The translations under genes were made by a program, and so were the position numbers. A stretch of 64,000 bases of DNA from Candidatus Aminicenantes bacterium (lineage in GTDB: Bacteria; Acidobacteriota; Aminicenantia; Aminicenantales; UBA4085): the NCBI GenBank assembly GCA_030691735.1, contig JAUYDS010000079.1, positions 905-64,904 of the forward strand, in the 5' to 3' direction. The notes under the pieces were generated by a model. The model was given only the letters and a program-made list of their open reading frames with translations, did not search any database and was not told the DNA's origin. The number at the start of each line of letters is the position of its first letter. Position 1 is the stretch's first letter. Of the stretch, positions 23,289 to 60,198 are shown piece after piece.

Positions 23289-23344
23289 GACGTGGCTAAT
23301 CCCCCCTTCTCCCCCCTTTATTAAAGGGGGGAGAAGGGGGGATT
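23289..23344. terminator. 47-bp perfect palindrome AATCCCCCCTTCTCCCCCCTTTA-T-TAAAGGGGGGAGAAGGGGGGATT preceded by the shared GACGTGGCT flank (copy 2)
   Basis: It lies downstream of the stop of the minus-strand M16 peptidase gene (23440). The stem is about 23 bp and perfect. Confidence 0.7.
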
Positions 23345-23439
23345 AGCATGGAGGTTGCCACGCTCCCTTCGGTCGCTCGCAACGACAAGAAAATTAACTA
23401 CTTCCCCTTTCTATCGGCAATTTCGGGGAGCGACACGGG

Positions 23440-25038
23440 CTATTTCAACTTGACGATGTGGACCGTTCCGGCGCCGTACTTCTTGGCCAGTCCATCGATC
23501 GTCCGGCCTCCGAACTTGGCGGCCATGGCGTCGATCGTCGGCTGGTTCGGGAGCATGTTGTTGGCCCCGGCCTTGCATTCCTCGATGTTGCCGGCGACCA
23601 TGATGATCATCTTGTCCGGCTGCAGCCACTTCTGGGCGACCCGCTTGAGGTCGGCGACCGTCACTTTCTCGTACTTGGCCAGATAGGCGTCGTAGTAATT
23701 CATCGGACGGCCGGTGAATTCTAGGTTGGCGAAGTTCTGGATGATGGAGCCGACCCCCGAGAACATGGACGGAAACGCGTTGACCCGGGCGCTCTTGGCC
23801 ATTTTGAGATCGGCTTCGCTGACGTCCCCGTTATGCATTCCCTCGATGAGGTCCAGCATCAGTTGGGAGGCGAAGACGACCGTCGAGTTCTTGGTCTGAC
23901 AGGAGGCCGTGAACGTCCCGGGGTAGAGTATCCCGGCTCCGCCGCCTCCTCCACCGCCGCGCGGACCGCCGCCCCCGCCGCCGCTGAAGCTGGAACTGGT
24001 GGAGTAGGCCAGCCCGTTATCGGTCCGCACGACCTTGGTGATGCGCGAGGAGAACGAGCCGCCGCCGAGGATGTAGTTCATCAAGTCGACCGCGGCGTAG
24101 TCGGGGTCGTCCACCATCAGGCCGAGATGCCCGATGCGGATGATCCCCTGGTTCGGGATGACCTCGGGTTGGACCATGTAGACGCCCGCCTTGGACGCCT
24201 GTTGGACCTTTGGAATGGGCGGCACGGCTTTCTCCGCCTTGGGCCATTTCCCGACCGTGGCTTCCAGCTTCTTCATCATCTCCGCTTTTTTGAAATCGCC
24301 CGAGACCACCAGGATGGCGTTATTGGCCCCCCAATACTTCTTGTGCCAGGCGATGAGGTCGGCCCGGGTGATGCCGGTGATCGTCGCTTCGGTCGTTTCC
24401 TGGGTGATCGGCGAGTTTTCACCGTAGATCAGATCGCTGTAAACGCGGCCGGCGACCTCGGAGACGTTTTTATTGCGATTCCGGATCGCGGGCAGGGCCT
24501 GGTCCTTCTCGCGGCGGAGCTTGTCGTCGGGGAAGGCCGGGTTCGTCAGGATGTCCATCCAGATCTTGAGGCCCTCGTCGAGATACTTGATGTTGATGGA
24601 CAGGTTGCGGGCCGTGACCGTCCCCGCCAGGAAGTCCATCCGCTCGTTGATCTGCTCGCCGGTCATCGTCGTGCTGCCGCCCGAGCGCATGATCGAGCCG
24701 GCGAAGCCGTCCACGCCCAGCTTGTCCTTGGGCTCGAGGAAGGGCCCGGTCCGGACGAGCAGCGATGCGGAAAACCAGGGGATCTCGTGATCCTCGGCGA
24801 TATAGACCACCAGTCCGTTCGAGAGCTTCGTCCGGAATTCGGACGCTTTGGGCACCTTGAAGTTGAGCGGAGGGTAGGTGAATTGTTCCGGGCGAGGTCC
24901 CTTGGGCGTTTGTCCGCTTTGAACGGCGGCTTGCGCCGGGTTGGTCCCGGCGGCCTGCGCGTCGACCGCGAAAACGAAAACGAGCAGGAGCAGGACCGGG
25001 ATGAACCATGAACTGAAATGTCGTCTGATCATTGTCAT
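23440..25038 (-). CDS. M16 family peptidase-like protein, likely non-catalytic partner subunit, with a signal peptide and a poly-Gly insertion
   Basis: The product has the M16 fold but no HxxEH motif. It contains the low-complexity stretch SGGGGGGPRGGGGGGGAG and an N-terminal signal sequence. Confidence 0.7.
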   Translation of the reverse strand: MTMIRRHFSSWFIPVLLLLVFVFAVDAQAAGTNPAQAAVQSGQTPKGPRPEQFTYPPLNFKVPKASEFRTKLSNGLVVYIAEDHEIPWFSASLLVRTGPFLEPKDKLGVDGFAGSIMRSGGSTTMTGEQINERMDFLAGTVTARNLSINIKYLDEGLKIWMDILTNPAFPDDKLRREKDQALPAIRNRNKNVSEVAGRVYSDLIYGENSPITQETTEATITGITRADLIAWHKKYWGANNAILVVSGDFKKAEMMKKLEATVGKWPKAEKAVPPIPKVQQASKAGVYMVQPEVIPNQGIIRIGHLGLMVDDPDYAAVDLMNYILGGGSFSSRITKVVRTDNGLAYSTSSSFSGGGGGGPRGGGGGGGAGILYPGTFTASCQTKNSTVVFASQLMLDLIEGMHNGDVSEADLKMAKSARVNAFPSMFSGVGSIIQNFANLEFTGRPMNYYDAYLAKYEKVTVADLKRVAQKWLQPDKMIIMVAGNIEECKAGANNMLPNQPTIDAMAAKFGGRTIDGLAKKYGAGTVHIVKLK

Positions 25039-46133: not shown

Positions 46134-47332
46134 TGAGAGAATCCATGGACGTGACCGATATCGTGGTCGTCGGTGGAATCCGGACGCCGATGGGGAAATT
46201 CGGCGGCGCCTTGAAGGATGTGGCGGCTTACGATTTGGGGGCGGCGGCGATTTCGGGAGTCTTGAAAAAAACCGGCCTCCCGGGCAAGGTCATCGATGAT
46301 GTCATCCTGGGAAGCTGTCGTCAGGCCGGAAACGGACCCAATCCTTCCCGCACGGCCATGGTCCGAGGAGGAATACCCGAAACCGTGCCGGCTTTGACCT
46401 TAAATATGGCCTGTCCGTCCGGGATGAGGGCCCTGGCCTTGGCCTCTCAAGCCATTCGCCTGGGGGAAGCCCAGGTCGTCCTCGTGGGAGGCTTCGACAG
46501 CATGAGCACGATACCTTACCTCCTCAAGGACGCTCGTTGGCAAGGATTCAAGATGGGCGACAAGGTGCTTCAGGACGGCTGGAGCGATTCGATCGACCCT
46601 CTCTGCAACTTAGGCATGGGCGAGACGGCCGAGAACCTTGCCGAGAAATACCAAATTTCGAGGCGGGAGCAGGATGAATTCGCCGCCTCCAGCCAGCAAA
46701 AAGCCGCCCGGGCCCAGGATGAAGGGTGGTTCGACGAGGAAATCGTTCCCGTCTCTGTCCCGCAGACGAAAGGAGATCCGCTGGCCTTTGGCCGGGATGA
46801 AACAATCCGCCGGGATACGACCGTGGACAGGCTGATGAAGCTGCCGCCCGTTTTCCGCAAGGACGGAAGCATCACGGCCGGAAACGCATGCCTGATGTCG
46901 GATGGGGCCGTGGCCCTGGTCGTCGCCTCTCGGTCGAAAGCTAAAGATCTAGGGTTGAAGCCGCTGTTTTCGCTCGTCTCTTACGCCCAATCCGCAGTGG
47001 ATCCCCGGTTTATGGGGGAAGGTCCGGCCGTAACGATTCCCCTGGCCTTGAACAAAGCGAAGATGACCCTGGCCGATGTCGACTTCATCGAGGTGAATGA
47101 GGCTTTTGCGGCCCAGGTCTTGGCCAACGAACGAATCCTCAAGTGGGACAGGGAACGACTCAACGTTCACGGCGGGGCGATCGCCCTCGGCCATCCCACG
47201 GGCATCAGCGGGGCCAGGATCTTGCTGACCCTGTACCATATCCTCAGGCTCCACGATGGAGAGACGGGCGTGGCCGGTATCTGCGGCGGGGGCGGAGTCA
47301 GCATGGCGGCGGTCATCCGGAGAGAGGGCTGA
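46133..47332 (+). CDS. Thiolase (acetyl-CoA acyltransferase), third copy in the cluster
   Basis: The thiolase signatures, with C-terminus GICGGGGVSMAAVI, are present. The start overlaps the upstream stop (TAATG). Confidence 0.85.
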   Translation: MRESMDVTDIVVVGGIRTPMGKFGGALKDVAAYDLGAAAISGVLKKTGLPGKVIDDVILGSCRQAGNGPNPSRTAMVRGGIPETVPALTLNMACPSGMRALALASQAIRLGEAQVVLVGGFDSMSTIPYLLKDARWQGFKMGDKVLQDGWSDSIDPLCNLGMGETAENLAEKYQISRREQDEFAASSQQKAARAQDEGWFDEEIVPVSVPQTKGDPLAFGRDETIRRDTTVDRLMKLPPVFRKDGSITAGNACLMSDGAVALVVASRSKAKDLGLKPLFSLVSYAQSAVDPRFMGEGPAVTIPLALNKAKMTLADVDFIEVNEAFAAQVLANERILKWDRERLNVHGGAIALGHPTGISGARILLTLYHILRLHDGETGVAGICGGGGVSMAAVIRREG

Positions 47333-47352
47333 GACATATGACCTCCGGTCCG

Positions 47353-47458
47353 GTCAAGGGACGAGCCTTCGGCTCGCCACTCGCCCGTGGCTTGTATCCA
47401 CGGGCGAGTACGGCGGAAGTGGACCCCCGGGCAATGCCCGGGGCCCCGGCCGCCGTGG
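47353..47458 (+). repeat. GC-rich palindromic mini-element, long form (copy C), filling the thiolase/Mo-hydroxylase intergenic gap
   Basis: It is near-identical to copy B, including the CACTCGCCCGTGG...CCACGGGCGAGTA hairpin module. Confidence 0.8.
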
Positions 47459-47468
47459 AGAAATAAAA

Positions 47469-48371
47469 TTGTCGCTCGACCGGGAGGCCGACATCGCATT
47501 CCACGCCCCCCAGACTCTGGCCGAAGCGCTCCGGCTCTTGGACGAGCTTGAGAACGCCCGGATCTTGGCCGGCGGGACAGACCTTCTGGTCGAGCTTCGA
47601 GAGGGCCGGGCAGAGGCCCGTAACCTCATCTCGATCCAAGACGTTGACGAGCTTAAAGGGATCAGAGAAAAGGGCGGCCGGGTCGAGATCGGGGCCTTGG
47701 CCACTCCCCGGGAGATAGCCGGCAACTCCCTGATCAATCGGCATAACCCGGCTTTGGCCCAGGCGGCCGGCGGGATGGCCTCTTCCCATATCCGGTCGAT
47801 GGCCACGATCGGAGGAAACATCGTCAGCGCGGTTCCCTCCGCGGACCTCCCTCCAGCCTTGATAGCGGCCGAGGCCGCTGTCCGGCTCGTGAGCTCGGCC
47901 GGAATCCGCGAAGTATCTCTTTCGGACTTTTTCACGAGTCCGAGGTGCACTGTCTGCGGAAGCGCGGAGATCCTTGCCGCGGCGATTTTCCCTCCGCCAC
48001 CGCCCGGGACAGGAATCTCCTGGGAGAGGTTTTCACTCCGCGAGTCCAACGCCCTGGCCGTCGCCGCCGTCGCGGCCTGCCTGACCATCCGGAAAGGAAC
48101 GATCGCCCGGGCCGCGGTCGTACTCGGAGCCGTGGCCCCGACCCCTCTGGCGGCGGTTAAAACCGCGGAATTTCTCTCCGGCCAAAAGCCTTCTACCGGC
48201 CTTTTTGCCGAAGCCGCTTCCCTGGCCGGGGAGGAATGCCGGCCGATTTCCGACATCCGAGGATCGGCCTGGTTTCGGAAGGAGATCGTCACGGTTCTGA
48301 CCCGGCGGGCCCTGGCCGGAGCCTTGGCTCGAGCCCAGGTGAACCAATCGGGAAGGAACGGCCCGGCTTGA
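47469..48371 (+). CDS. FAD-binding (CoxM/HcrB-like) subunit of a xanthine-dehydrogenase-family molybdenum hydroxylase; TTG start
   Basis: The FAD_binding_5 motifs AGGTDLLVEL and GGNIVSAVPSADL, plus the CO dehydrogenase flavoprotein C-domain, are present. Confidence 0.75.
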   Translation: MSLDREADIAFHAPQTLAEALRLLDELENARILAGGTDLLVELREGRAEARNLISIQDVDELKGIREKGGRVEIGALATPREIAGNSLINRHNPALAQAAGGMASSHIRSMATIGGNIVSAVPSADLPPALIAAEAAVRLVSSAGIREVSLSDFFTSPRCTVCGSAEILAAAIFPPPPPGTGISWERFSLRESNALAVAAVAACLTIRKGTIARAAVVLGAVAPTPLAAVKTAEFLSGQKPSTGLFAEAASLAGEECRPISDIRGSAWFRKEIVTVLTRRALAGALARAQVNQSGRNGPA

Positions 48372-51226
48372 CCCAAGACAAAGAATCCCATCGCACTGTC
48401 GTCCTCAGAGTCAACGGCGAAGATCATGCCGTGGCCGTTTACGATGAGGAAACTCTGCTGGACGTCCTCAGGGACAAGCTGAGACTGACCGGGACAAAAA
48501 AAGGCTGCGGCCGGGGCGTGTGCGGAGCCTGCACCGTCCTGGTGGACGGGGAGCCAAGGAACGGCTGTCTGCTGCTCGCCCTTTCCTGCCGGGGAAAAGA
48601 GATTACAACCATCGAAGGGATCGCCCGGGGAGGAGAACTCCACCCTCTTCAGCGCTCCTTCATCAACCACGGCGCCGTCCAATGCGGGTACTGCACGTCG
48701 GGGATGATCCTCAGCGCCTATGCCCTGATCCAACGCCGTCCGGATCCGACCGTCGAGGAAATCAAAGAGGCCCTCTCCGGAAACCTCTGCCGCTGCACGG
48801 GCTATGTCCGGATCATCGAGGCCGTTCGAGACTGGAAGAACCACCTGACGTCCGCCGGCCCAGAAACTTCCTCTCCAAACCTCGAGGAGCTCGCCGTCGT
48901 CGGGAAAAGCCTTCCGCGGGTGGATGCCGCCGACAAGGTCAGCGGCCGGGCCAAGTACGCGGCCGATCTTCATTTCGAAAACGTGCTCCACGGCAAGATT
49001 CTGACTTCTCCCATCGCCCACGGCCGGATCAGATCCATCGACACCAGCCGGGCGAAAGCCCTCCCGGGCGTCAAGCTGGTTCTCACCGGCCGGGACGTTC
49101 CGGATATCACCTATGGGATCAGCCCTCCCCGCTATGACGAGCATGTGCTGGCCAAGGACAAGGTGCGCCATGTCGGAGACGAGGTGGCGGCCGTCATCGC
49201 CGTGGACGAACGGACGGCGGAGAGGGCCTTGAGGCTCATCGACGTCGATTACGAAGAGCTCCCGGGGGTCTTCAATCCCAAGGAGGCGATGAGGGAAGGA
49301 GCCCCGCTGCTCCATGAACAATATAAAAGGAACATCAACACCCTTGTCGATCAGCATTTCGGTGACGTCGAAAAAGGCTTTGCCGAGGCCGACTACATCC
49401 GAGAGGAAGAATTCGTAGGGAACCACGTCTACCAGAGCCCCATCGAACCGCACGCCGCGATCGCCGACTGGGAAAACGACGGGACGACGCTCGTGCTGTA
49501 CAGCTCGACCCAGGTCCCTCATTACCTTCATTACACGGTCGCCCGGGTGCTGGACATGCCTTTGGGCCGGATCCGGGTCATCCGTCCCCCGGTGGGAGGA
49601 GGATTTGGAGGCAAGCTCGATACGACGCCTCTCGACCTGATCGCTTCGATCGCCTCGAAGAGGCTGGGCAGACCGGTCAAGATGGTCTACAGCCGGAAAG
49701 AGATGTTCCTCCACGGCCGGGGGCGGCACAAACAGCACATGAAGTTCAAGATCGGCGTAAAAAAAGACGGGACACTGACGGCTGTCGAAAGTCGGATCTA
49801 TCTCGACGGAGGGGCGTATACGTCCTATGGGGCGATCACGGCCTATTACGCCGGAAGCATGATTCCGACCCTGTACCGCATGCCGAACTACCGCTACCAG
49901 GGCTTCCGGGTCATGACCAACAAGCCCGCTTGCGGAGCCATGCGCGGCCACGGGGTTCCCCAACCGCGGTTCGCTTTCGAGTCCCTCCTGAGCATGATCG
50001 CCGACGATCTGGGCCTCGACCCCATCGAGATCCGCCTTCGCAATGCGGTCGGTCCCAACACCCGGACCTGCAACGACCTGGAGATCGGAAGCTGCGCCTT
50101 TCCCCAGACCTTGACGGCGGTGAGGGAAAAATCCGGCTGGTCGCAGAAGTATGGCCGGCTTCCTTCGGGAAAAGGAATCGGCGTCGGCTGCGGCGGTTTT
50201 GTCTCGGGAGCCGGCTACTCTAAATATAGGGGTCAGGTCCAGCTGAGCTCGGAAAAAAAGCTGGAGCCCTTCCAGAAAAAATCGGTCTTTCCCCATTCGA
50301 ACGCCATCGTCAAGATAAGCGAAGACGGGACGGCGGCCGTCCTGCTCATCCTGGCCGCAGAAATCGGGCAAGGCGCCCTGACCGTTCTGACCCAGATCTG
50401 CGCCGAAACTTTAGGGATCGGCTATGGGAGAGTCCGGATCCGGACGGAGGACACGGATATCAGTCCTCTCGACCTCGGGGCTTATTCCTCGCGCACGACC
50501 TTGATGGGGGGAAACGCGGTCGTCATGGCCAGCAAGGATCTCCTCCGGAAGCTGTTTTCCATTGTCGCCGGGATATGGGGTTCCGAGCCCAGCGATCTGC
50601 GGGCCGGAAACGACCGGATTTTTGACTGCCGGAACAGGTCGAAAAGCATCGACTGGGCGGAAGCGGCCCGGAAGTACTTCAACGACCACGGCCCCCTGGT
50701 CGGGACGGGCTGGTACAAGCCTCCGGATAACTTGGGCGGAGACTACAAAGGAGCCGCCGTAGGAACCAGTCCAGCCTTTTCTTTTTCGAGCGCCGTGTGC
50801 GAATGCCGCGTCGACCTGGAGACCGGCCAGGTGAAGCTGGAACGGTTCGTCGATTATCATGACTGCGGTACGCCTATCAACCCCCAGGCGGTCCACGGCC
50901 AGGTGGAGGGAGCGGTGGTCATGGGCGCGGGAGAAACCCTGATGGAGGATGTCGTCTACGATTCCCGGGGAAATATCCTCAATCCCAATCTCCACGACTA
51001 TCTGCTCATGACCATCGGGGACGCGCCGGAGATCTTCAGCGGTCTCGTCGATTCCTACGAGCCCGCGGGGCCTTACGGAGCCAAGGAGGTCGGCGAAGGC
51101 GCGACCCTCCCCGTCCTGGCGGCCGTGGCTCACGCTATCGCCAACGCGACCGGGGTATGGATCAAGGAACTGCCCATCACCCCGGAGAAAATCCTGAGAG
51201 CCCTTCGGGAAGCCGGAAGGCCCTGA
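48368..51226 (+). CDS. Fused [2Fe-2S] (CoxS-like) and molybdopterin-binding large (CoxL/HcrA-like) subunit of a molybdenum hydroxylase; TTG start overlapping the upstream stop
   Basis: The N-terminus has the 2Fe-2S motifs GCGRGVCGACTV and CRCTGYVRII. Downstream is the aldehyde oxidase/xanthine dehydrogenase a/b hammerhead and MoCo-binding domains of about 780 aa. Confidence 0.8.
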   Translation: MTQDKESHRTVVLRVNGEDHAVAVYDEETLLDVLRDKLRLTGTKKGCGRGVCGACTVLVDGEPRNGCLLLALSCRGKEITTIEGIARGGELHPLQRSFINHGAVQCGYCTSGMILSAYALIQRRPDPTVEEIKEALSGNLCRCTGYVRIIEAVRDWKNHLTSAGPETSSPNLEELAVVGKSLPRVDAADKVSGRAKYAADLHFENVLHGKILTSPIAHGRIRSIDTSRAKALPGVKLVLTGRDVPDITYGISPPRYDEHVLAKDKVRHVGDEVAAVIAVDERTAERALRLIDVDYEELPGVFNPKEAMREGAPLLHEQYKRNINTLVDQHFGDVEKGFAEADYIREEEFVGNHVYQSPIEPHAAIADWENDGTTLVLYSSTQVPHYLHYTVARVLDMPLGRIRVIRPPVGGGFGGKLDTTPLDLIASIASKRLGRPVKMVYSRKEMFLHGRGRHKQHMKFKIGVKKDGTLTAVESRIYLDGGAYTSYGAITAYYAGSMIPTLYRMPNYRYQGFRVMTNKPACGAMRGHGVPQPRFAFESLLSMIADDLGLDPIEIRLRNAVGPNTRTCNDLEIGSCAFPQTLTAVREKSGWSQKYGRLPSGKGIGVGCGGFVSGAGYSKYRGQVQLSSEKKLEPFQKKSVFPHSNAIVKISEDGTAAVLLILAAEIGQGALTVLTQICAETLGIGYGRVRIRTEDTDISPLDLGAYSSRTTLMGGNAVVMASKDLLRKLFSIVAGIWGSEPSDLRAGNDRIFDCRNRSKSIDWAEAARKYFNDHGPLVGTGWYKPPDNLGGDYKGAAVGTSPAFSFSSAVCECRVDLETGQVKLERFVDYHDCGTPINPQAVHGQVEGAVVMGAGETLMEDVVYDSRGNILNPNLHDYLLMTIGDAPEIFSGLVDSYEPAGPYGAKEVGEGATLPVLAAVAHAIANATGVWIKELPITPEKILRALREAGRP

Positions 51227-51400: not shown

Positions 51401-52264
51401 TTATTCCAACCTCAGAATTCGGGCCGCGTTTCCATAGAGTATTTTCTTTTTCGAAGCCTCGGCCAGAGGAAGCCGTCTGATCGCCTCGACGTTGCTCCAG
51501 ATCGTCGGAACGCCCGGCCAATCCGAGCCGTAAATGAACTTGTCGATATTTTTTTCCATGTCGGGAAAATATTTCAAAAGGTTTTGAGGGGGGAGGCCGG
51601 AGATCTCCAGGAACAGATGAGGGTGGATCCGGGAGAGAAAAAAGGCTTTGTCATACCAGAAGCCCCGGCCGCCGTGGGCCATGACCAGGACGAGGTCGGG
51701 GAAGTCCGCGGCCACGTCATCCAGATGAATCGGGTCGGCGTACTTCATCTTGGCGCCCCGGAACACGGACGATCCCGTGTGGACCAGGACGGGCAGACGG
51801 TGATCCTGGGCGAGGGCATAGACCGGATACAAAGCCGGGTCGTTGGGATAAAAGTGGTTGTAAGAGGGGTAGAGCTTGATTCCCTTGGCTCCCAACCGGA
51901 TGTATTTCAGAAATTCTTCGGCCGGCCGGAGGGTCAGGGAAGGATTGATCGTGCAGAAGGGGACGAAAATGTCCCGGCCCCGGCAGAAATCGAAGACATA
52001 CTCGTTGGAAACAATCCCCGTGGTGACGGGGCTGATTTCGGGCAGGATCACGGCCTTGGCGACGTCGCGGCTTTCGAGGTAGAAGGCGAACCGGTCCGGG
52101 TCGGTCAGCTCCTCGTACCTCTCGTAAAATTCCGAGCCGGTCGCCTTCTGGTAGTCGTGGACCCAGGCGTGCCAGTGCTCTTTCAACCCGATGTGGACAT
52201 GAAAATCGATGACCTTGAGCCTGGAGCGGCCCGGTCGCGGCCGGGGATTCGGTGTCTTGAGCAT
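51401..52264 (-). CDS. Amidohydrolase_2 family (ACMSD-like TIM-barrel metal-dependent hydrolase/decarboxylase)
   Basis: The metal-binding start VIDFHVHIG is present, along with HWHAW and a conserved His/Asp pattern. The start is trimmed to MLKTPN at 52264, because the upstream part of the tool ORF crosses the palindrome. Confidence 0.65.
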   Translation of the reverse strand: MLKTPNPRPRPGRSRLKVIDFHVHIGLKEHWHAWVHDYQKATGSEFYERYEELTDPDRFAFYLESRDVAKAVILPEISPVTTGIVSNEYVFDFCRGRDIFVPFCTINPSLTLRPAEEFLKYIRLGAKGIKLYPSYNHFYPNDPALYPVYALAQDHRLPVLVHTGSSVFRGAKMKYADPIHLDDVAADFPDLVLVMAHGGRGFWYDKAFFLSRIHPHLFLEISGLPPQNLLKYFPDMEKNIDKFIYGSDWPGVPTIWSNVEAIRRLPLAEASKKKILYGNAARILRLE

Positions 52265-52327: not shown

Positions 52328-52356
52328 TTGACAACAGGCCTCAGTCCCTATATTTT
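52328..52356 (+). promoter_or_regulatory. Putative sigma70 promoter TTGACA-17-TATTTT for the HTH-GNAT gene
   Basis: TTGACA lies at 52328..52333, followed by a 17-nt spacer and TATTTT at 52351..52356, directly abutting the palindrome. Confidence 0.4.
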
Positions 52357-52384
52357 CATGGTAACCAATATTGGTTACCATGAA
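52355..52384. promoter_or_regulatory. 30-bp perfect palindromic operator TTCATGGTAACCAAT|ATTGGTTACCATGAA
   Basis: Both strands are identical (hence both strands translate FMVTNIGYHE). It lies between the -10 element and the ATG at 52385, in a divergent intergenic region. Confidence 0.65.
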
Positions 52385-53038
52385 ATGAAAAGCGACATTC
52401 GACTGAAAATCGTCAGGATCCTTATCGATACTCCCGAGGGACTTCCGCTGGAGACTCTGGCCGCGGCCCTGGGCTTGACCCGCCATACGGTCGCCAAATA
52501 CGTGGAGGTCCTGAGGGCGGAGGGAAAGATCCGCTTCACTAAAATCGGGCGGTCGAAGCTTTGGAAAAGCATTTCCGCCCAAGTCGGTGTTCGGTTCCTG
52601 CGGCTGGACGATCTGGAAGACATTCTCCGCCTCGAGGAGAGGATCGAGAAGGCCGGTCCCTTTCCGTCAAAATCCCGGCTTGAGTCCTTGAGGGAGACGG
52701 TGGCCTACCATCTGCGGCAGGATGACCCGTTCCTGACCTTGGGGGCCGAAATCGACGGAAAGCTCGTAGGGTATGTCCTCGCCGAAGTCAGGCTTTGGGA
52801 GTTCGGGTCCGGGGAAAAAACCGGCTGGATCAAAGTCCTGGGCGTAGATCCGGATTGCCAGGGCATGGGGATCGGCCGCAAGCTGGGCGAAACCCTGCTC
52901 GGCCATTTCGCCAGGAAGGACGTCAAGCGGGTCAGGACTCTGGTCAACTGGTTTGACGGGCCCCTCATCTCCTATTTCCGGTCTCTAGGTTTTGACATCC
53001 TCAACATGATTCCCCTGGAGAAGGAGTTGACTAAATGA
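52385..53038 (+). CDS. Transcriptional regulator: N-terminal winged-helix HTH fused to a C-terminal GNAT acetyltransferase domain
   Basis: The N-terminus has LETLAAALGLTRHTVAKYVEVLRAEGKI (wHTH). The C-terminus has VLGVDPDCQGMGIGRKLGE (GNAT motif A). Confidence 0.7.
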   Translation: MKSDIRLKIVRILIDTPEGLPLETLAAALGLTRHTVAKYVEVLRAEGKIRFTKIGRSKLWKSISAQVGVRFLRLDDLEDILRLEERIEKAGPFPSKSRLESLRETVAYHLRQDDPFLTLGAEIDGKLVGYVLAEVRLWEFGSGEKTGWIKVLGVDPDCQGMGIGRKLGETLLGHFARKDVKRVRTLVNWFDGPLISYFRSLGFDILNMIPLEKELTK

Positions 53039-54159
53039 TGGACAGCTTCAAGGAATGGTACGAGGGCCGGCATCAGTACGCCCGGGAGTGGAAAAAACGG
53101 ACGGGGAAAAAGGTCCTCGGCTATTTCTGCACCTATGTCCCGGAGGAGATCCTCATCGCGGCCGATGTTCTTCCAGTCAGGATCCTCGGCAGCCACGAGC
53201 CCCAGGACGTGACCGAGCCCCATATCTTCGGGATGTTTTGTCCCTTCTGTCGGGACTGTCTCGCCCAGGGGCTCCAGGGAAGATACGAGTACCTCGACGG
53301 AATCATGATCAGCCAGAGCTGCCTTCATATCCGCCAGGCTTACACCTCCTGGAAGCTCCATGTCCCCGTGGAGTTCAGCTACTACCTGCCCATGCCCCAC
53401 CATCTTCAAAGCCGGCGAGCCCTCCCCTATTTGACGGGCGAGCTGGAGGCTTTCAAGAAGGCCGTGGAGGAATGGACGGGGACGACGATCACGGAGGAGG
53501 GGCTGAACCGCGGCATCGAGGTCATGAATCGGTCCCGGCGGCTGACCCGGGCGCTCTATGAGCTGCGCCGGAGGCCCGACCCGCCGGTGACGGGTTTAGA
53601 GTCCATGCGCGTGGTCGCGGCGAGCCAGATGGTCGATAAAAGGGAATACAACGAAGCCCTTCAGGAAACGATCGACCGGTTGCCGGAGCGGGCGGGAAGA
53701 GACGGGTCCCGGGTCCGGCTGATGATGCTGGGCAGCGAGAACGACGATGTCGCCTTCGTCGGAATGGTCGAATCCTTGGGAGCGATCTTCGTCATCGACG
53801 ACCACTGCACGGGGAGCCGCTATTTCTGGAACGAAGTCTTGACGGACCGGAAGCCGATGGAGTCCATCGCCGCCCGGTACGTCGACCGGGTTCCGTGCCC
53901 GACCAAGGACTGGCCGGAGCGGAAGCGGATCGAACACATCCGACAACTGGCCAAGGATTGGAACGTCCAGGGGGCGATTGTCGTCCAGCAGAAGTTCTGC
54001 GATCCTCATGAGATCGATATTCCCGCCATCATCAAGGCTCTTAAACAGGACGGCGTGCCCGCCCAAGTCCTGGAGATTGACGTGACGGTCCCCGTCGGTC
54101 AGTTCAAGACCCGGATCGAGGCGTTTTTGGAAATCCTGAAGCAAGAAGACCTGTTTTGA
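53035..54159 (+). CDS. Class I benzoyl-CoA reductase / 2-hydroxyacyl-CoA dehydratase-family subunit (BzdN/BcrC-like)
   Basis: It belongs to the HgdB/BcrC family (374 aa; N-terminus [40 protein letters not shown]). It is the first gene of a C-B-ATPase-ATPase-fdx module. Confidence 0.7.
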
Positions 54160-54169
54160 GGAGGCCTCG

Positions 54170-55480
54170 ATGAAGCCGACCTATAAAACCGAGCCGCTCC
54201 GATGCTGGGCCAAGGCCAAGGAGATCCGCCAAGATTACTATAAGAATTACGCCCTGGCCCATGAGAAGGGCGGCCTGCGCTGGGCCGGGGGAGCGTGGTC
54301 GTTCGACGCCATCCCCGCAGGCCTCGGCGATGACGTCTACCCCCTGACGGGCGAGCCGTACGCGGCCGCGATCGCCTGGGACAAGGAATTCGCCCTCCAG
54401 TGCCACGAGGCGGTCGAAAAAGCCGGATACGCCCGCGATCTATGCTCCTACATGCGCAACTACTGGGGGTCGATCATCCTCAATAAATATGTCTTCGGCG
54501 GAGAATTTCCGAAGCCGGACTTCATCTGGCAAGATCATATCTGTTGCTCTCATGCCAAATGGTATCAAGTGGTCCGGGATCTGGAAGGGAAGGATATCCC
54601 GATGTACTGCCTCGACGTCAGCGTCGGCCCTTACGAGGAGCTCACGGACAACCGGCTCGAATACGTCGTCGGCCAGATGCACGACGGGATCGCCTGGCTG
54701 GAGAAGGTGACCGGCCGGCGCTTCGATGACGAAAAGCTCATCCGGGCCGTGTCCAACCATTGCCGCTCCACCGCCCTCTGGGCCGAGGTCTGCGCTCTGA
54801 ACAAAGCCATCCCCGCTCCGCTGGACGAGAAGACGATGTATTCGCTCTATGTCCTCGGAACCCTGCAGAAGAGCAGCGGCATCGTAGCGGACTTTACCGA
54901 GGAGCTCCGGGACGAAGTCAAGGATCGGGTCGCCAGAGGGATCGCCGCGGTTCCCAACGAACGGTGCCGGGTCATGTCTGACACCCAGCCTCCCTGGGCC
55001 TTCTTGAAGATCTTCCGATACCTGGAGCAATACGGCTGCGTCTCGGTCGGCTCCCTCTATACGTTCGGCCTGATCGGGCAATGGGAGGTCAAGGCCGACG
55101 GGACCTGGGGCGCCCGGACGACGCCGGAGCAGCAGGGAATCGTGATCCGGGACCGGGATCAGGCTCTTCGAATCCTGGCCGACTGGGAATTGAAAAAACC
55201 GGAATGGCAGCATTTTTATTCTCCCCAAGCCAAAAGCGAGATGATGATCCGGATCGCCAAGGAATGGACGCTCGACGGCGTCCTCCTCCATTACAACCGG
55301 GGCTGCGAAGGCTTGAGCCTGGGAATCGCCGAAAACCGGCTGGCCATGATCAAGGCGGGCTACCCGGTCATCGTTTTCGAGGGCAATATGGGGGACGAGA
55401 GGGAGTTCGACGAAATCCAGACTCTGAAACGGATCGACGCTTTTATGGAAAGCCTGGGGTTCGAAAAGGATTCCCGATGA
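54170..55480 (+). CDS. Class I benzoyl-CoA reductase family subunit (BzdO/BcrB-like)
   Basis: It belongs to the HgdA/BcrB family (436 aa) with conserved Cys residues. It directly follows the BzdN-like gene. Confidence 0.7.
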
Positions 55481-55529: not shown

Positions 55530-55597
55530 GTCAAGGGACGAGCCTTCGCGGCGGAAGTGGACCCCCGGGCAAAGCCCGGGGCCCCGGCCGCCGTGGC
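55530..55597 (+). repeat. GC-rich palindromic mini-element, short form (copy D), upstream of the ATPase gene
   Basis: GTCAAGGGACGAGCCTTCGCGGCGGAAGTGGACCCCCGGGCAAAGCCCGGGGCCCCGGCCGCCGTGG. Confidence 0.8.
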
Positions 55598-55634: not shown

Positions 55635-56414
55635 ATGAATGTCGCCGGAGTGGATTGCGGGGCGAAGTCGGCCAAGGTTCTCATCCTGAGGGACGGGGAG
55701 GTCTTGGCTAGAAGTGCGGTCCTCAGCGGATTCGATCCGAAGGCCGCGGCGGCCCAGGCCTTGGACGAGGCCTTGATACAGGCCGGACTCTCGAGGAGCG
55801 ACCTGGCCCATGTGACGGCCACCGGAACAGGGAAGAACGAGGTGGATTTCGCCTCCTCCTCGATCACCGAGGTCGGCGCCGATGCCCGGGCCGCAAACGC
55901 CCTGTTTCCGGCCGCCCGGACCGTGATCGACATCGGGGCGGAGGAAGGACGGGCGATCCGGATCAGCCCGCAGGGAAAGGTGATCGATTTCGCCATCAAC
56001 GAGAAGTGCGCCGCCGGAGCCGGCACGTTCACCGAAACCATGGCCAGGACGCTCGAGGTCGCCGTGGAAGACATGGGCCCGCTCTCTCTCAAGTCTCAGA
56101 ACGCCGTCCCGATGAACGCCCAATGCGCCGTCTTCGCCGAGTCCGAGGTGGTCAGCCTCATCCACGCCAAGCATTCCAAGGAGGATATCGCCCGGGCGGT
56201 TCACGACGCCATCGCGGACAGGATCGCGTCCATGGCTCGGAAGATCGGGATCGAGAAGGATATCGTCCTCGTCGGCGGGGTGGCAAAGAACGTGGGCTTC
56301 GTGACCTCCTTGAAACGAAATCTGAAGGAAGAGCTGTTCATCCCCCCTTACCCCGAATATTCCTGCGCCCTGGGAGCCGCCCTCACGGCCGCCGAACGGG
56401 CCAAAGGAGTCTGA
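55635..56414 (+). CDS. BadF/BadG/BcrA/BcrD-type ATPase (benzoyl-CoA reductase electron-activating subunit, BzdP/Q-like)
   Basis: An ATG at 55635 has a GGAGGA RBS. The motifs GVDCGAKSAKVLIL, AINEKCAAGAGTF and LVGGVAKNVGFV match the acetate/sugar-kinase ATPase fold. The tool ORF start at the TTG 55518 inside the repeat was rejected. Confidence 0.75.
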   Translation: MNVAGVDCGAKSAKVLILRDGEVLARSAVLSGFDPKAAAAQALDEALIQAGLSRSDLAHVTATGTGKNEVDFASSSITEVGADARAANALFPAARTVIDIGAEEGRAIRISPQGKVIDFAINEKCAAGAGTFTETMARTLEVAVEDMGPLSLKSQNAVPMNAQCAVFAESEVVSLIHAKHSKEDIARAVHDAIADRIASMARKIGIEKDIVLVGGVAKNVGFVTSLKRNLKEELFIPPYPEYSCALGAALTAAERAKGV

Positions 56415-56415
56415 C

Positions 56416-57288
56416 ATGGCCACAGAATATTGGCGCTGGCCCGAATCCCGGTGGACCTCGCCGGAGATCGATTGGAAAGCCGGCCGCATCGTCACCGCCG
56501 GAATCGACGTCGGTTCGGTGAGCTCCCAGGCCGTGGTCATGGTCGACGGCGCGCTGTTCTGCTACGGCAGCCTGCGGACCGGGTCTAACAGCCCGGAAAG
56601 CGCCCAACGGGCGATGGATTTTGCCCTGGCCGAAACCGGCTTGGTCCTTGCCGACATCCACTATATCGTCGGGACGGGATACGGCCGGGTCAATATCTCC
56701 TTCGCCCAGAGGGCCCTGACCGAGATCGCCTGCCATGCCCGGGGCGCGAATTTCATGTACGGGCCGACGGTCAAGACCATCCTGGACATGGGCGGGCAGG
56801 ATTGCAAGGCCATCCGCTGCGACGCCAAGGGGAAAGTGACCAACTTCCTGATGAACGACAAATGCGCGGCCGGGACGGGCCGGGGGATGGAAGTGTTTGC
56901 CGACCTTTTGTCCGTCCCCATCGCCGACATGGGGCGTATGTCGTTCGAGGTGGAGGCCGAGCCCGAGCCCGTCAGCTCCACCTGCGTCGTGTTCGCCAAA
57001 TCCGAGGCCGTGGGCCTCTTGAGGAAAGGCTGGCCGAAGGAAAAGGTCCTGGCCGCTTATTCCTCGGCCATGGCCCACCGCGTCGTCGAGCTTTTGCAGC
57101 GCATCCAGGTAGAAGAGGATTTCGCCGTCACCGGCGGCATCGCCAAGAACGAAGGCGTGGTCAAGAGAATCGAAAAGGAGCTGAAAATAAAGGCCCTCGA
57201 ACCCAAGTTCGACACCCAGATCGCGGGCGCCCTGGGCGGCGCGTTATTCGCTAAGGCCCTCGTCGAGAAGGACAGGGGGCTCCGCTAG
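56416..57288 (+). CDS. Second BadF/BadG/BcrA/BcrD-type ATPase subunit
   Basis: The motifs GIDVGSVSSQAVVM, MNDKCAAGTGRGME and VTGGIAKNEGVV are present. It is distinct from the upstream ATPase, consistent with a heterodimeric BCR alpha/delta pair. Confidence 0.75.
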   Translation: MATEYWRWPESRWTSPEIDWKAGRIVTAGIDVGSVSSQAVVMVDGALFCYGSLRTGSNSPESAQRAMDFALAETGLVLADIHYIVGTGYGRVNISFAQRALTEIACHARGANFMYGPTVKTILDMGGQDCKAIRCDAKGKVTNFLMNDKCAAGTGRGMEVFADLLSVPIADMGRMSFEVEAEPEPVSSTCVVFAKSEAVGLLRKGWPKEKVLAAYSSAMAHRVVELLQRIQVEEDFAVTGGIAKNEGVVKRIEKELKIKALEPKFDTQIAGALGGALFAKALVEKDRGLR

Positions 57289-57289
57289 C

Positions 57290-57577
57290 ATGCTGGCCCA
57301 CTACGGATATAAGGACGGCTCGGGAGAGTATTTCATCGTCGTCGACACGGACAAGTGCGACGGATGCGGCCGCTGCGTCTCCGCCTGTCCCTACGGAGTT
57401 TTCGAAATCGGCGAGGACGAAAACGACCCCTTCCGCGAGACGGTCGTGGTCAAAGTCTCCGAATCCCACCGTAAGAAAATCAAATACAGCTGCGCGCCCT
57501 GCAAACCCGTCTCCGGAAAAAAATCCCTGCCCTGCCTCGAAAGCTGTGCTCCGGGCGCGATCGGTCACTCCTGGTGA
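57290..57577 (+). CDS. 2x[4Fe-4S] ferredoxin of the benzoyl-CoA reductase type (Fdx/BzdM-like)
   Basis: The 95-aa product has the Cys patterns CDGCGRCVSACP and the atypical CAPC-x10-C-x3-C. Confidence 0.75.
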   Translation: MLAHYGYKDGSGEYFIVVDTDKCDGCGRCVSACPYGVFEIGEDENDPFRETVVVKVSESHRKKIKYSCAPCKPVSGKKSLPCLESCAPGAIGHSW

Positions 57578-60198
57578 GAGGACAGAACCAAGTGGCCTCC
57601 CGATCGCCGGGATCGGGCCGGAAATTCCTCCTGGACGGGAAGGCCGTCGAGGCCGCGGAGGGCCGGACCATCCTGCAGGCCGCTCTCGCCGCCGGGATCT
57701 ATATTCCCCATCTCTGCCATCATCCGGACCTGCCGCCCTTCGAGACGATTCCCCCCCTGGAGACATGCTACCGGGGTTCCGAGGTTTTCCGTTCGGCAGG
57801 GCGCGGTCACACTTATACGGGCTGCGGGCTCTGCTTGGTCAAGATCTCCGGTCGCGAGGAGCCGGTCCTCTCCTGCACGCACGTCGCCGAGGACGGGATC
57901 GAGGTTGTGACCTCGACCCCGGAGATCGCGTCCGCTCGTCAGAAAAAACTGGCCGCGCTGATGATCCGCCATCCGCACGCTTGTCTGACCTGCGCCCAGC
58001 GGGAAGGATGCAGCTTGACCCAGTGCTCGTCCAACGTCCCCGAGGCGGAGAGGTGCTGTCCCCGGTTCGATCATTGTGAGCTGAGAAGCCTGGCCGAGTA
58101 CGTCGGCCTCAGCCAGGACCTTTCCCGATATCGTTTCCGCGGTGAGGTCGCGGAAATGCAAGGGCCCCTCTTTATCCGGGACTACAACCTCTGCGTCGGC
58201 TGCCTGCGGTGCGTCCGGGTCTGCGAATCCGTGATCGGCGCCAAGGCCTTGGGGTACGTATCGGCCGCGGACGGAGAGATTATGGTGGGCGCCTCGAAGC
58301 CTTCCTGGGATGAGGCGGGGTGCCGGTCCTGCGGCGCGTGCGTCGAGGTTTGCCCGACCGGCGCGCTGCGCGATAAAAACCTCAAGCCCGGCGACCGGAA
58401 AGCGTCTCTAATCGCCTGCGTCTCCGGCTGCCCCTTGGCCATGGATGTCCCCTCCTATCTGAACTTCATCGCTCAGGGCAGACCGGCAGAAGCGGCGGCC
58501 GTCATCCGGCGGAGCGTTCCACTCGCCCTGACGCTTGGATACATCTGCTCCCATCCCTGCATGACCGAATGCCGCCGGGGGAAGATCGATGAGTCCATCG
58601 CCATCTGCGAGCTCAAGAGGTTCGCCCTGGAGCAAGCAGACTCGCCGGTCAAGGGACGAGCCTTCGCGACGGAAGTGGACCCCCGGGCAAAGCCCGGGGC
58701 CCCGGCCGCCGTGGAAAAGGCGGAACGCAAGCCGACGGGAAAGAAGGTCGCCGTCATCGGAGGGGGACCGGCCGGCCTCGTGGCCGCTTCTTATCTGGCG
58801 AATGGCGGCCACTCCATCAAGGTCTTTGAAGCGAGTTCGGAGCCGGGAGGAATGCTGCGCTGGGCGATCCCCGAATACCGGCTCCCGCGGAGCGTCGTCG
58901 CTGGAGAGATCGAACTTGTCAAGGCTCAGGGGGTCGAGATTCTGACCGGGGCACGGGTTGACAGAGAGACGTTCCTCAGGGATTTCGGCCCCGGCTCCTG
59001 GGACGCGGTTTTTCTCGCGGTCGGCGCTCAGGAGAGCAGAGGGATCGACATCGAAGGTCAAGACCTGGAGGAAGTCGGTAAGGGGGTGGAGTTTCTCCGG
59101 GAGGCCAAAGCGGGAACGATCGAGAAAATCAGCGGAAGAGTCGTGGTCATCGGCGGGGGAAACGTCGCCCTGGACGCGGCCATGACGGCCCTCCGGCTCG
59201 GAGCTTCCACTGTCGAGCTGGCCTGCTTAGAAAGCCGGGACGAGATGCCGGCGTTCGCTTGGGATGTCCGGGAAGCCGAGGAGGACGGGGTAGTGCTGAA
59301 TCCAGGTTGGGGGCCCTCCCGGATCGTCGGACGGGAAGGCCGGGCCGCCGCGGTCGAGCTTATCGGTTGTGTTTCGGTCTTCGATGAACAAGGAAATTTC
59401 CGCCCGAAATTCGATCCCGCTCGACGGAAGACTCTCCCGGCCGATCGCGTCGTCTTGGCCGTCGGGCAGCGGCCCGATCTTTCGTTTCTTCCTCCGGATC
59501 TGGGAGTCCGGTTGACGAAGGCGGGGACAATCCAGGTCAGCCCCCTGAATCTCCAAACGAGCGTGCCTTGGATCTTCGCCGGAGGCGAGGTTACTCTCGG
59601 ACCGTCCTCGGCCGTGGAATCCATGGCCTTGGGACGGCAGGCCGCCTCGTCGATCGATCGTTTCTTGGGAGGTGAGGGGCTGGGCTCGGCGCCGAACGGG
59701 GCCGGGAAGGCCGGCCGGGGAGACCTGTGGCTGGGCCATGATCCCGGTTTCGGCTCGAGGCGCAGAGTGCCCAGCCGCCGCCTCCTTCGAGCGGAACGCC
59801 TGAAATCTTTCGACCTCGTCCAGGGAAGCTATGAGCCGGACGAGGCCCGCCGGGAAGCAGGCCGGTGCTTGAGGTGCGAACTCAGGTTCGCCCTTTCGCC
59901 CGTCTGCCTTCCTCCTGAAAAATGGATAGAGTTCCGCCTGGATTCGATGTCCGAGGTTCCCGAAGTGGAGGGCGTTTTTCAGCTTTCAGATGAGCGGAGA
60001 AACGTGATTTTCATCGCCGGAACGCCCAACCTCAGGCGGACCCTTCTCGAACACCTGTCCGCCGGTTCGGAAGCCCATTATTTTCTCTATGAAAAGAACC
60101 CGATGTTCACCAAAAGGGAAAGCGAATGGATTCAGCAGTTCCTTCAGAAACACGGCCGCCTTCCGCCGAAGAACGAAGAGGTCGACGAGTTGTTCTAG
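57574..60198 (+). CDS. Fused Fe-S / FAD-NAD(P)H oxidoreductase (NuoG-like 2Fe-2S and 4Fe-4S N-terminus, GltD/SudA-like C-terminus); candidate ferredoxin-regenerating BzdV-like enzyme; GTG start
   Basis: The N-terminus has 2Fe-2S fer2_4 (CHHPDL...CGLCLV) and several CxxCxxCxxxCP motifs. The C-terminus has KKVAVIGGGPAGLVAASYLA and a pyridine-nucleotide disulfide oxidoreductase fold. The linker contains repeat copy E in-frame. Confidence 0.7.
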   Translation: MRGQNQVASRSPGSGRKFLLDGKAVEAAEGRTILQAALAAGIYIPHLCHHPDLPPFETIPPLETCYRGSEVFRSAGRGHTYTGCGLCLVKISGREEPVLSCTHVAEDGIEVVTSTPEIASARQKKLAALMIRHPHACLTCAQREGCSLTQCSSNVPEAERCCPRFDHCELRSLAEYVGLSQDLSRYRFRGEVAEMQGPLFIRDYNLCVGCLRCVRVCESVIGAKALGYVSAADGEIMVGASKPSWDEAGCRSCGACVEVCPTGALRDKNLKPGDRKASLIACVSGCPLAMDVPSYLNFIAQGRPAEAAAVIRRSVPLALTLGYICSHPCMTECRRGKIDESIAICELKRFALEQADSPVKGRAFATEVDPRAKPGAPAAVEKAERKPTGKKVAVIGGGPAGLVAASYLANGGHSIKVFEASSEPGGMLRWAIPEYRLPRSVVAGEIELVKAQGVEILTGARVDRETFLRDFGPGSWDAVFLAVGAQESRGIDIEGQDLEEVGKGVEFLREAKAGTIEKISGRVVVIGGGNVALDAAMTALRLGASTVELACLESRDEMPAFAWDVREAEEDGVVLNPGWGPSRIVGREGRAAAVELIGCVSVFDEQGNFRPKFDPARRKTLPADRVVLAVGQRPDLSFLPPDLGVRLTKAGTIQVSPLNLQTSVPWIFAGGEVTLGPSSAVESMALGRQAASSIDRFLGGEGLGSAPNGAGKAGRGDLWLGHDPGFGSRRRVPSRRLLRAERLKSFDLVQGSYEPDEARREAGRCLRCELRFALSPVCLPPEKWIEFRLDSMSEVPEVEGVFQLSDERRNVIFIAGTPNLRRTLLEHLSAGSEAHYFLYEKNPMFTKRESEWIQQFLQKHGRLPPKNEEVDELF
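58648..58713 (+). repeat. GC-rich palindromic mini-element, short form (copy E), in-frame inside the BzdV-like gene
   Basis: GTCAAGGGACGAGCCTTCGCGACGGAAGTGGACCCCCGGGCAAAGCCCGGGGCCCCGGCCGCCGTGG is translated as [22 protein letters not shown]. Confidence 0.8.

Follow-up and report, generated by a model that had tools for sequence, protein, structure and literature searches.

A conserved palindrome, probably an autoregulatory operator, at the promoter of a winged-helix/GNAT regulator gene upstream of bzd-type benzoyl-CoA reductase genes in Candidatus Aminicenantes

The regulators of the benzoyl-coenzyme A (benzoyl-CoA) pathway described according to a 2019 paper are BadM, BamVW, BgeR and BzdR only (PMC6678401). 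The gene of BzdR in Azoarcus sp. CIB adjoins bzdN on its upstream side, the BzdR operators overlap the promoter, and the protein is released by benzoyl-CoA (PMC6678401). In R. palustris, acetamidobenzoates produced by BadL, a GNAT acetyltransferase, detach BadM from the badDEFGAB promoter (PMC6191541), and BadL/BadM is the only described case in which a GNAT protein controls the expression of benzoyl-CoA reductase. Here we analyzed a stretch of 64,000 nucleotides from an uncultured Candidatus Aminicenantes bacterium (GenBank assembly GCA_030691735.1, contig JAUYDS010000079.1, positions 905 to 64,904; hereafter, the window), in which a long perfect palindrome lies between a promoter and a gene for a winged helix-turn-helix (wHTH) domain fused to a GNAT domain, upstream of bzdNOPQ-type genes. 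We consider it probable that the palindrome is the autoregulatory repressor operator of this wHTH-GNAT gene, with release mediated by the GNAT domain; because the regulator stop codon overlaps the bzdN start, the same promoter probably also drives the bzdNOPQ and ferredoxin genes. The elements concerned are listed below.

52328-52333, + strand: –35 hexamer TTGACA of the regulator/bzd promoter (promoter scan)
52351-52356, + strand: –10 hexamer TATTTT, of which the last 3 nt are shared with the palindrome (promoter scan)
52354-52385, no strand assigned: 32-bp perfect palindrome (arm comparison; single-stranded DNA fold of –13.7 kcal/mol, z = –5.6)
52358-52381, no strand assigned: conserved 24-bp core of the putative operator, ATGGTAACCAATATTGGTTACCAT, consisting of two GGTNACC heptads with AATATT between them
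52385-53038, + strand: gene for a 217-aa fusion of a winged helix (HTH_11/HTH_24) and a GNAT domain, the proposed repressor (Pfam)

The arrangement resembles the BzdR/PN system (BzdR has the paralogue BoxR) in that the regulator gene is immediately upstream of bzdN, a palindromic operator, putative in our case, is located at the promoter and transcription start, and the sensor domain of the repressor is derived from an enzyme fold. However, BzdR combines an XRE-type helix-turn-helix (HTH) with a shikimate-kinase-like domain and binds TGCA-N6-TGCA at three operator regions, whereas the window encodes a winged helix joined to a GNAT domain and presents a single 24-bp GGTNACC-N6-GGTNACC site; moreover, the overlap of the regulator stop with the bzdN start suggests one operon here. 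Neither an XRE nor a shikimate-kinase family was found among the Pfam and NCBIfam matches of the protein, and no Rrf2 family, to which BadM belongs, among its Pfam matches at E <= 0.01, in agreement with an earlier reading of this DNA from its letters (the sequence-only reading), which had held the regulator type to be unlike BzdR, BoxR and BgeR. With BadL/BadM the locus shares a GNAT acetyltransferase within the switch of benzoyl-CoA reductase genes, but BadL and BadM are two proteins, the latter of the Rrf2 type, whereas in the window DNA-binding and GNAT domains are parts of one polypeptide. The likeness to BadL is confined to the pathway context, and acetylation by the GNAT domain of the window protein is putative.

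The sequence-only reading had described a 30-bp perfect palindrome, TTCATGGTAACCAATATTGGTTACCATGAA, between a TTGACA-17-TATTTT promoter and the ATG at 52385. The promoter scan and the open reading frame (ORF) agree with this placement, and the 30-mer was confirmed as perfect at 52355-52384; its true length, however, is 32 bp (52354-52385; TTTCATGGTAACCAAT followed directly by ATTGGTTACCATGAAA), with two arms of 16 nt (52354-52369 and 52370-52385) that are 100% complementary and have a spacer of 0. Under a uniform base composition, the expected number of perfect 32-bp palindromes in 64 kb is 64000 x 4^-16, i.e. approximately 1.5e-5. The final base of the palindrome is the A of the regulator start codon, ATG 52385. 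The intergenic region that carries it is 120 bp long and has a G+C content of 43%, compared with 61% for the window, and the promoter, which is sigma-70-like, matches 10 of 12 consensus positions. The transcription start is predicted at approximately 52363, inside the left arm, so that the 24-bp core would span approximately –6 to +19. A further promoter for a leaderless transcript, with TACCAT in the right arm as its –10 hexamer, was considered and found unsupported, as TACCAT stands at no constant distance from the ATG: the interval is 3 nt in the window and 4-6 nt at the other loci checked. When the window was scanned for further half-sites, as the sequence-only reading had proposed for the genome, no second copy was detected at up to 3 mismatches, nor did GGTAACC-N6-GGTTACC occur a second time. 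The only further long perfect palindrome of the window is at 23295-23347; with 53 bp (26 + 1 + 26; GCTAATCCCCCCTTCTCCCCCCTTTA-T-TAAAGGGGGGAGAAGGGGGGATTAGC) it is longer than the 32-bp one, and it is intergenic, with minus-strand ORFs at 21748-23178 and 23440-25038 on either side.

We fetched 75 related metagenome loci for comparison, and 185,579 species genomes (596 Gb) were scanned for an 18-base pattern, GGTAACCNATATNGGTTACC. The palindrome was found in the same place at more than 60 related loci of uncultured Aminicenantes. With the motif as anchor, 57 distinct orthologous promoters were obtained (protein identity 47-100%, nearly all from Candidatus Aminicenantes), which divide into 30 proximal ones and 27 distal ones, the latter belonging to a bamB-linked clade of approximately 50% identity that is also from Aminicenantes. 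The proximal layout reads cTTGACAa, 17-18 nt, TAxxxT, 3 nt, ATGGTAACCAAT joined to ATTGGTTACCAT and then ATG, the TAxxxT hexamer ending 3 nt before GGTAACC and the distance from palindrome to ATG being 0, 4-9, 15 or 18 nt. The start of TTGACA is 42-43 nt upstream of the dyad centre in 27/30 proximal promoters and 39 nt upstream in 25/27 bamB-linked ones. In all 30 proximal promoters, positions 4, 5, 8, 9 and 10 from the centre are invariant in both arms (left arm CC and TGG, right arm GG and CCA), and the flanks vary freely. The conserved and presumably functional core is 24 bp (52358-52381) within the 32-bp palindrome. A weight matrix built from the proximal sites detected exactly one site per locus in approximately 704 kb of related loci. 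The fixed spacing to TTGACA and the –10 box in 57 promoters, together with the fact that the site travels with the regulator gene whatever lies downstream, strongly supports the earlier proposal of an autoregulatory operator, as a prediction from sequence comparison.

The ATG at 52358 lies within the palindrome and in frame with ATG 52385, and many homologues, P0001 among them, were deposited with the corresponding extension; the motif could accordingly be a coding one, with MVTNIGYH... as the conserved N-terminus of a protein extended to 226 aa. We regard this as highly improbable. The spacer between palindrome and ATG varies in length and the frame differs between loci, which excludes a coding constraint: the extension does not share the frame of the gene at gaps of 4, 6, 7 and 9 nt, which make up about half of the proximal loci, and in one homologue the site is read in another frame as 'GNQYWLP'. 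Furthermore, the motif is palindromic and also occurs before a gene of the SDR family, and ATG 52358 is upstream of the predicted transcription start. Gene callers nevertheless often start at an ATG inside the palindrome (52358-52384 in the window; P0001, P0037, P0044, P0048 and others), for which reason the exact 217-aa product has no database record. The N-termini MVTNIGYH(K), LLVTDIGYQN and GNQYWLP of many deposited proteins are, as judged from the nucleotide sequences, the palindrome translated in various frames, and thus spurious; such extended N-termini were the first sign that the motif is conserved at the DNA level.

In the distal type, the dyad has a degenerate left arm (AGTAACAAAT) and is located 3 bp nearer to the –10 box, and the leader of approximately 128 nt contains an invariant extra half-site, TGGTAACCAT, right before a normal Shine-Dalgarno (SD) sequence. 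This bamB-linked paralogue clade (L047-L080; e.g. L065, 3810-4000) also has a second CAATATTG whose centre is 22 bp downstream of the dyad. The layout suggests multi-operator control or DNA looping, and in a transcript the two GGTNACC heptads might also pair with each other. Indeed, GGUUACC of the promoter is complementary to GGUAACC before the SD sequence in this clade, and in the window the palindrome could form a perfect hairpin (–13.7 kcal/mol when single-stranded, z = –5.6), with the start codon directly behind it and no SD sequence. These features would fit a 5'-terminal hairpin of the mRNA that stabilizes the transcript or masks the SD-less start codon of the regulator gene, an explanation to which we assign a small probability. 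An RNA beginning at the predicted start (approximately 52363) would retain a stem of only 5 bp and folds no better than shuffled sequences (z = –0.62). It is the sequence rather than the pairing that is kept: in the 30 proximal promoters, most changes at positions 3, 6, 7 and 11-13 affect one arm only, and the right arm reads GGATACC in 8/30 and GGTAACC in 6/30 with no compensating change in the left arm. In addition, a search of the window and four related loci against Rfam returned tRNAs only, and the gene behind the site in locus L012 has a normal SD sequence. The regulator gene of the window has no SD sequence, whereas its neighbours (bzdN, bzdO, bzdQ and others) have GGAGG-type sites; an SD-less regulator gene followed by a bzdN with a good SD sequence would fit a low output of repressor and a high output of enzyme from one transcript.

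As the sequence-only reading had stated, the 217-aa ORF starting at ATG 52385 encodes a winged helix fused to a GNAT domain: HTH_11 (PF08279) matched with 28.7 bits (cut-off 25), HTH_24 (PF13412) with 24.5 bits (cut-off 21.9) and Acetyltransf_1 (PF00583) with 50.1 bits (cut-off 20.7). In an AlphaFold2 model built with 50 homologues (mean predicted local distance difference test score 77.7), the wHTH domain comprises residues 2-62, with helices at 2-15, 22-29 and 33-45 and a beta-hairpin wing at 51-62 (strands 51-54 and 57-62), and a complete GNAT fold, with every element of the beta1-alpha1-alpha2-beta2-4-alpha3-beta5-alpha4-beta6 order, occupies residues 68-207. The three-helix bundle, recognition helix, wing and above-threshold scores place the protein among winged helix-turn-helix proteins, and the fold and motif A (Q/R-x-x-G-x-G/A) place it in the GNAT superfamily. 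An alignment of 50 homologues (60-88% identity) showed that R33, H34, T35, K38 and Y39 of the predicted recognition helix, G55, R56, K58 and W60 of the wing and Q159-x-x-G162-x-G164 of GNAT motif A, the CoA pyrophosphate-binding loop, are invariant, as are E134 and E139 and, nearly so, Y197. The invariance of the predicted DNA-reading head matches that of the half-sites, and the alignment and model indicate that the CoA-binding site of the GNAT domain is intact. Homologues number in the hundreds, and those with a named source are nearly all 'GNAT family N-acetyltransferase [Candidatus Aminicenantes]'. Searches of the PDB by sequence (phmmer) and by fold (Foldseek) returned single-domain GNAT enzymes only and no solved wHTH-GNAT protein; Foldseek gave 350 matches at E <= 0.001, of which all 50 listed are GNAT-type acetyltransferases, and the N-terminal 66 residues matched weakly to generic ArsR, IclR and DeoR types (E >= 0.047). 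In GNAT toxin/antitoxin modules, a small operon of two genes encodes the DNA-binding antitoxin and the GNAT toxin as separate proteins; the protein of the window, a single fused polypeptide, does not belong to this type (TacT, AtaT, KacT).

In most full-length loci, the regulator gene abuts or overlaps genes of benzoyl-CoA reductase, as it does bzdN in the window. The genes following the regulator are bzdNOPQ in the window and in L018, L021-L024, L027-L029, L031, L033, L035, L036, L038, L042 and L046. In many other loci, the regulator is followed by a gene for a 668-aa AFOR-family protein, and that of L045 matched BamB, a subunit of the class II benzoyl-CoA reductase (PDB 4z3w), with E = 0 and 1250 bits; in L047, genes for a ferredoxin and for HdrD/CCG proteins, BamC- and BamD-like, come next. 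In a third kind (L025, L082 and L096), a NifB-like radical-SAM gene, two NifH-like genes and two nitrogenase-component-1-like genes follow, all of the nitrogenase-like genes scoring under the cut-offs for true Nif proteins. At the head of this nitrogenase-like operon (L025, 241-4317; L096, 490-6841; also L082 and L090) is a regulator copy of 68% identity with the operator-like site TTGGTAACCGATATTGGTTACCAA; the nitrogenase-component-1-like proteins are 552 and 457 aa long, and in L025 an amidohydrolase gene, whose product is 73% identical to that of the window, lies divergently upstream. Across these three kinds of downstream genes, the site follows the regulator rather than the cargo, as far as the compared sequences indicate.

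The exact 18-base pattern had 20 matches in the species genomes. Six of them (L002, L006, L011, L016, L018 and L020) are located 6-18 nt upstream of a homologue of the regulator gene, and 12 are in unrelated phyla, compared with approximately 9 expected by chance (596e9 / 4^18). The latter, one of which (L010) is a terminator-like hairpin between convergent genes, might be taken to mean that the palindrome arose by chance or has a generic role, for instance as a terminator, the end of a mobile element or a cluster of restriction sites, GGTNACC being the recognition sequence of BstEII. This is the least credible of the alternatives that we weighed and is effectively excluded by the conservation: the chance expectation is approximately 1.5e-5 per window, and in 57 promoters the site keeps its place between conserved promoter elements and the start codon; moreover, the unrelated matches are near the chance number and mostly lack the AT...AT flanks.

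The remaining two matches (L012, 568-591; L015, 6341-6364), both in metagenome-assembled genomes of Acidobacteriota, show the TTGACA/–10/operator layout with no regulator gene adjacent. There, an SD sequence comes after the operator-like site, then a FabG-like SDR gene with a thiolase-domain gene, and this pair lies directly after had (TIGR03201, 396 bits, cut-off 338) and a dch-like gene. The sequence-only reading had stated that a palindrome found apart from any regulator would speak against an operator; this is indeed seen in L012 and L015, yet behind the same promoter and in a cluster of the benzoyl-CoA pathway. Because the unit is inside a pathway cluster and behind the same promoter, we read it as a trans-acting regulon member and not as evidence against an operator; it is probably a unit of the benzoyl-CoA lower-pathway cluster that is controlled in trans. 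The same two loci are, however, what one would expect if the site were the operator of a different, unlinked transcription factor and the wHTH-GNAT protein merely a co-transcribed acetyltransferase; its GNAT catalytic residues are apparently retained, and BadL and BadM of R. palustris, the GNAT protein and the repressor, are separate proteins. We judge this unlikely, although the least so of the alternatives to an operator of the wHTH-GNAT protein. The wHTH domain scores above the Pfam cut-offs and its recognition helix is invariant, and in the related loci that carry it, except L012 and L015, the site lies upstream of the regulator gene, at 0-18 nt in proximal and approximately 130 nt in bamB-linked promoters, with three kinds of cargo. 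Furthermore, no other regulator genes near the site were noticed in the gene lists examined, and the window contains no second regulator gene and no bamB.

We therefore favor an operator read by the wHTH-GNAT protein itself. The site is dyad-symmetric and adjoins the predicted –10 box, and it is conserved together with the regulator gene. A dimer or higher oligomer of the protein would bind the two GGTNACC half-sites through its invariant recognition helix and wing. Since the core lies directly after the –10 box, at approximately –6 to +19, the bound protein would block RNA polymerase and thereby repress its own gene and the reductase genes. Release may be triggered through the GNAT domain with its intact acyl-CoA binding loop, and the likeliest trigger would be an acyl-CoA of the pathway, perhaps benzoyl-CoA. 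An acyl-CoA is our first choice of effector because benzoyl-CoA is the one metabolite, their substrate, that both reductase classes share and induces BzdR, and because GNAT domains bind acyl-CoA; a second possibility is an acetylated product made by the regulator itself, in a scheme like that of BadL. Several points weigh against this proposal. The functional reading is drawn from position and conservation, and the organism is uncultured. The two heptads are spaced 13 bp from centre to centre and thus depart from the one-turn interval that is classic for a simple dimer. Residues E134, E139 and Y197 suggest a GNAT domain capable of catalysis, so that the protein could be primarily an enzyme, and the regulator gene has no SD sequence. 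Benzoyl-CoA is only a candidate ligand, and at L012 and L015, with no regulator adjacent, another unlinked protein could bind. As a more speculative extension, which we hold to be possible but doubtful, the protein may represent a new class of one-component sensors whose GNAT domain reads the acyl-CoA pool: either benzoyl-CoA would compete with acetyl-CoA or CoA at the GNAT site, or an inducer would be self-made by acetylation of a small aromatic amine, as if BadL and BadM were merged. The same switch would then act on the class I, class II and nitrogenase-like operons, and the last of these might encode a third, so far undescribed ATP-dependent reductase of the anaerobic aromatic pathway in Aminicenantes.

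BirA, the best-known bifunctional enzyme-repressor, has an N-terminal HTH_11-type winged helix fused to an enzyme domain, and the enzyme-bound ligand controls its dimerization and operator binding. The protein of the window lacks a biotin-ligase domain, and the analogy is one of logic, not of family; a specific relationship to BirA was considered and dropped, BirA being absent among the PDB matches of the wHTH domain. The uncharacterized proteins annotated by NCBI as 'bifunctional helix-turn-helix transcriptional regulator/GNAT family N-acetyltransferase' embody the same two-domain idea, and the known examples of such annotated HTH + GNAT fusions are of the MarR type. In the searched passages of a review of bacterial GNAT architectures, accessory domains of acyl-CoA-synthetase-like, cAMP-, NADP- and ACT-type are described and no DNA-binding class was found (PMC8556138). 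The open-access literature searched yielded no characterized HTH-GNAT regulator, operator or regulon, although such absence is not proof, and for benzoyl-CoA reductase together with GNAT it yielded only the BadL paper and a GNAT gene beside bamQ. The latter is an unexplained 'GNAT family N-acetyltransferase' gene adjoining bamQ in the benzene-degrading Desulfobacterota strain ORM2 (PMC13101534).

The genes on either side of the regulator in the window are as follows.

53035-54159, + strand: bzdN (TIGR03190, 475 bits, cut-off 453.8), with its own SD sequence, GAGAAGGAG
54170-55480, + strand: bzdO (TIGR03191, 717 bits, cut-off 448.6)
55635-56414, + strand: bzdP-like gene for an ATPase subunit of the BcrAD/BadFG type (PF01869, TIGR00241)
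56416-57288, + strand: bzdQ (TIGR03192, 432 bits, cut-off 380.2)
57290-57577, + strand: ferredoxin gene at the end of the bzd block (Fer4 families; gene order identical in L097)
51401-52264, – strand: divergent Amidohydro_2 gene (PF04909, E = 1e-35), sharing the 120-bp intergenic region with the regulator gene

The regulator stop (53036-53038) overlaps the bzdN ATG at 53035 as ATGA, and the SD sequence of bzdN sits within the 3' end of the regulator gene. The NCBIfam equivalogs of BzdN, BzdO and BzdQ (TIGR03190, TIGR03191 and TIGR03192) were matched above their cut-offs and in order, which identifies a class I, bzd-type benzoyl-CoA reductase operon and upholds the earlier description of the downstream genes as bzdNOPQ-like. 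No bzdP-specific family model was among the matches, and the fourth subunit fits generic activase models only. The bzdP-like ORF starts mechanically at TTG 55518; its likely start is ATG 55635, because alignments with homologues begin only at residue 34-43 and the orthologue in L097 has 259 aa. A 67-nt direct repeat (55530-55596 and 58648-58714, 99% identical) contains the hairpin CCCCGGGC-AAA-GCCCGGGG; one copy is in the bzdO-bzdP spacer and the other inside an ORF for an 874-aa Fe-S flavoprotein, where it is translated.

The sequence-only reading had also placed a divergent amidohydrolase gene facing the site. The PF04909 gene is there, and a divergent amidohydrolase is present in L021-L026, L043 and L090; however, it is missing at the matching position in L097 and L098, and the idea of a constant partner of the operator was rejected on account of these two loci. 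A weak minus-strand promoter, TTGTCA-16-TATCTT, is present in the window and largely reflects the near-symmetry of TTGACAA; we make no regulatory claim for the amidohydrolase. Directly upstream of the amidohydrolase gene (47256-51226) are ORFs of the xanthine-dehydrogenase family. Their orthologues in L097 have FAD-binding, [2Fe-2S] and molybdopterin-binding domains and resemble 4-hydroxybenzoyl-CoA reductase; in L097, which is syntenic, the xanthine-dehydrogenase-family genes abut the regulator and the amidohydrolase is missing.

A dyad operator at an autoregulated promoter is a classical element; the regulator type is undescribed and appears to be dedicated to anaerobic ring reduction in an uncultured phylum. 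Metagenomic papers tie the Aminicenantes phylum to benzoyl-CoA reductase genes, and the described regulators of ring reduction are all from cultured Proteobacteria and Geobacter-type strains. The palindrome also explains a recurrent annotation error, the spurious 'MVTNIGYH' N-termini of hundreds of database entries. The putative operator could be used as a marker for more genes of the pathway, such as the SDR/thiolase pair and the nitrogenase-like operon, and the GNAT domain, as a possible acyl-CoA sensor, could serve in a benzoyl-CoA biosensor. The promoter, the putative 24-bp operator and the 217-aa protein together form a complete regulatory unit, from a phylum without cultured members, that is open to experimental test, and the presence of one regulator/operator pair on both non-homologous classes of benzoyl-CoA reductase points to a shared metabolite signal.

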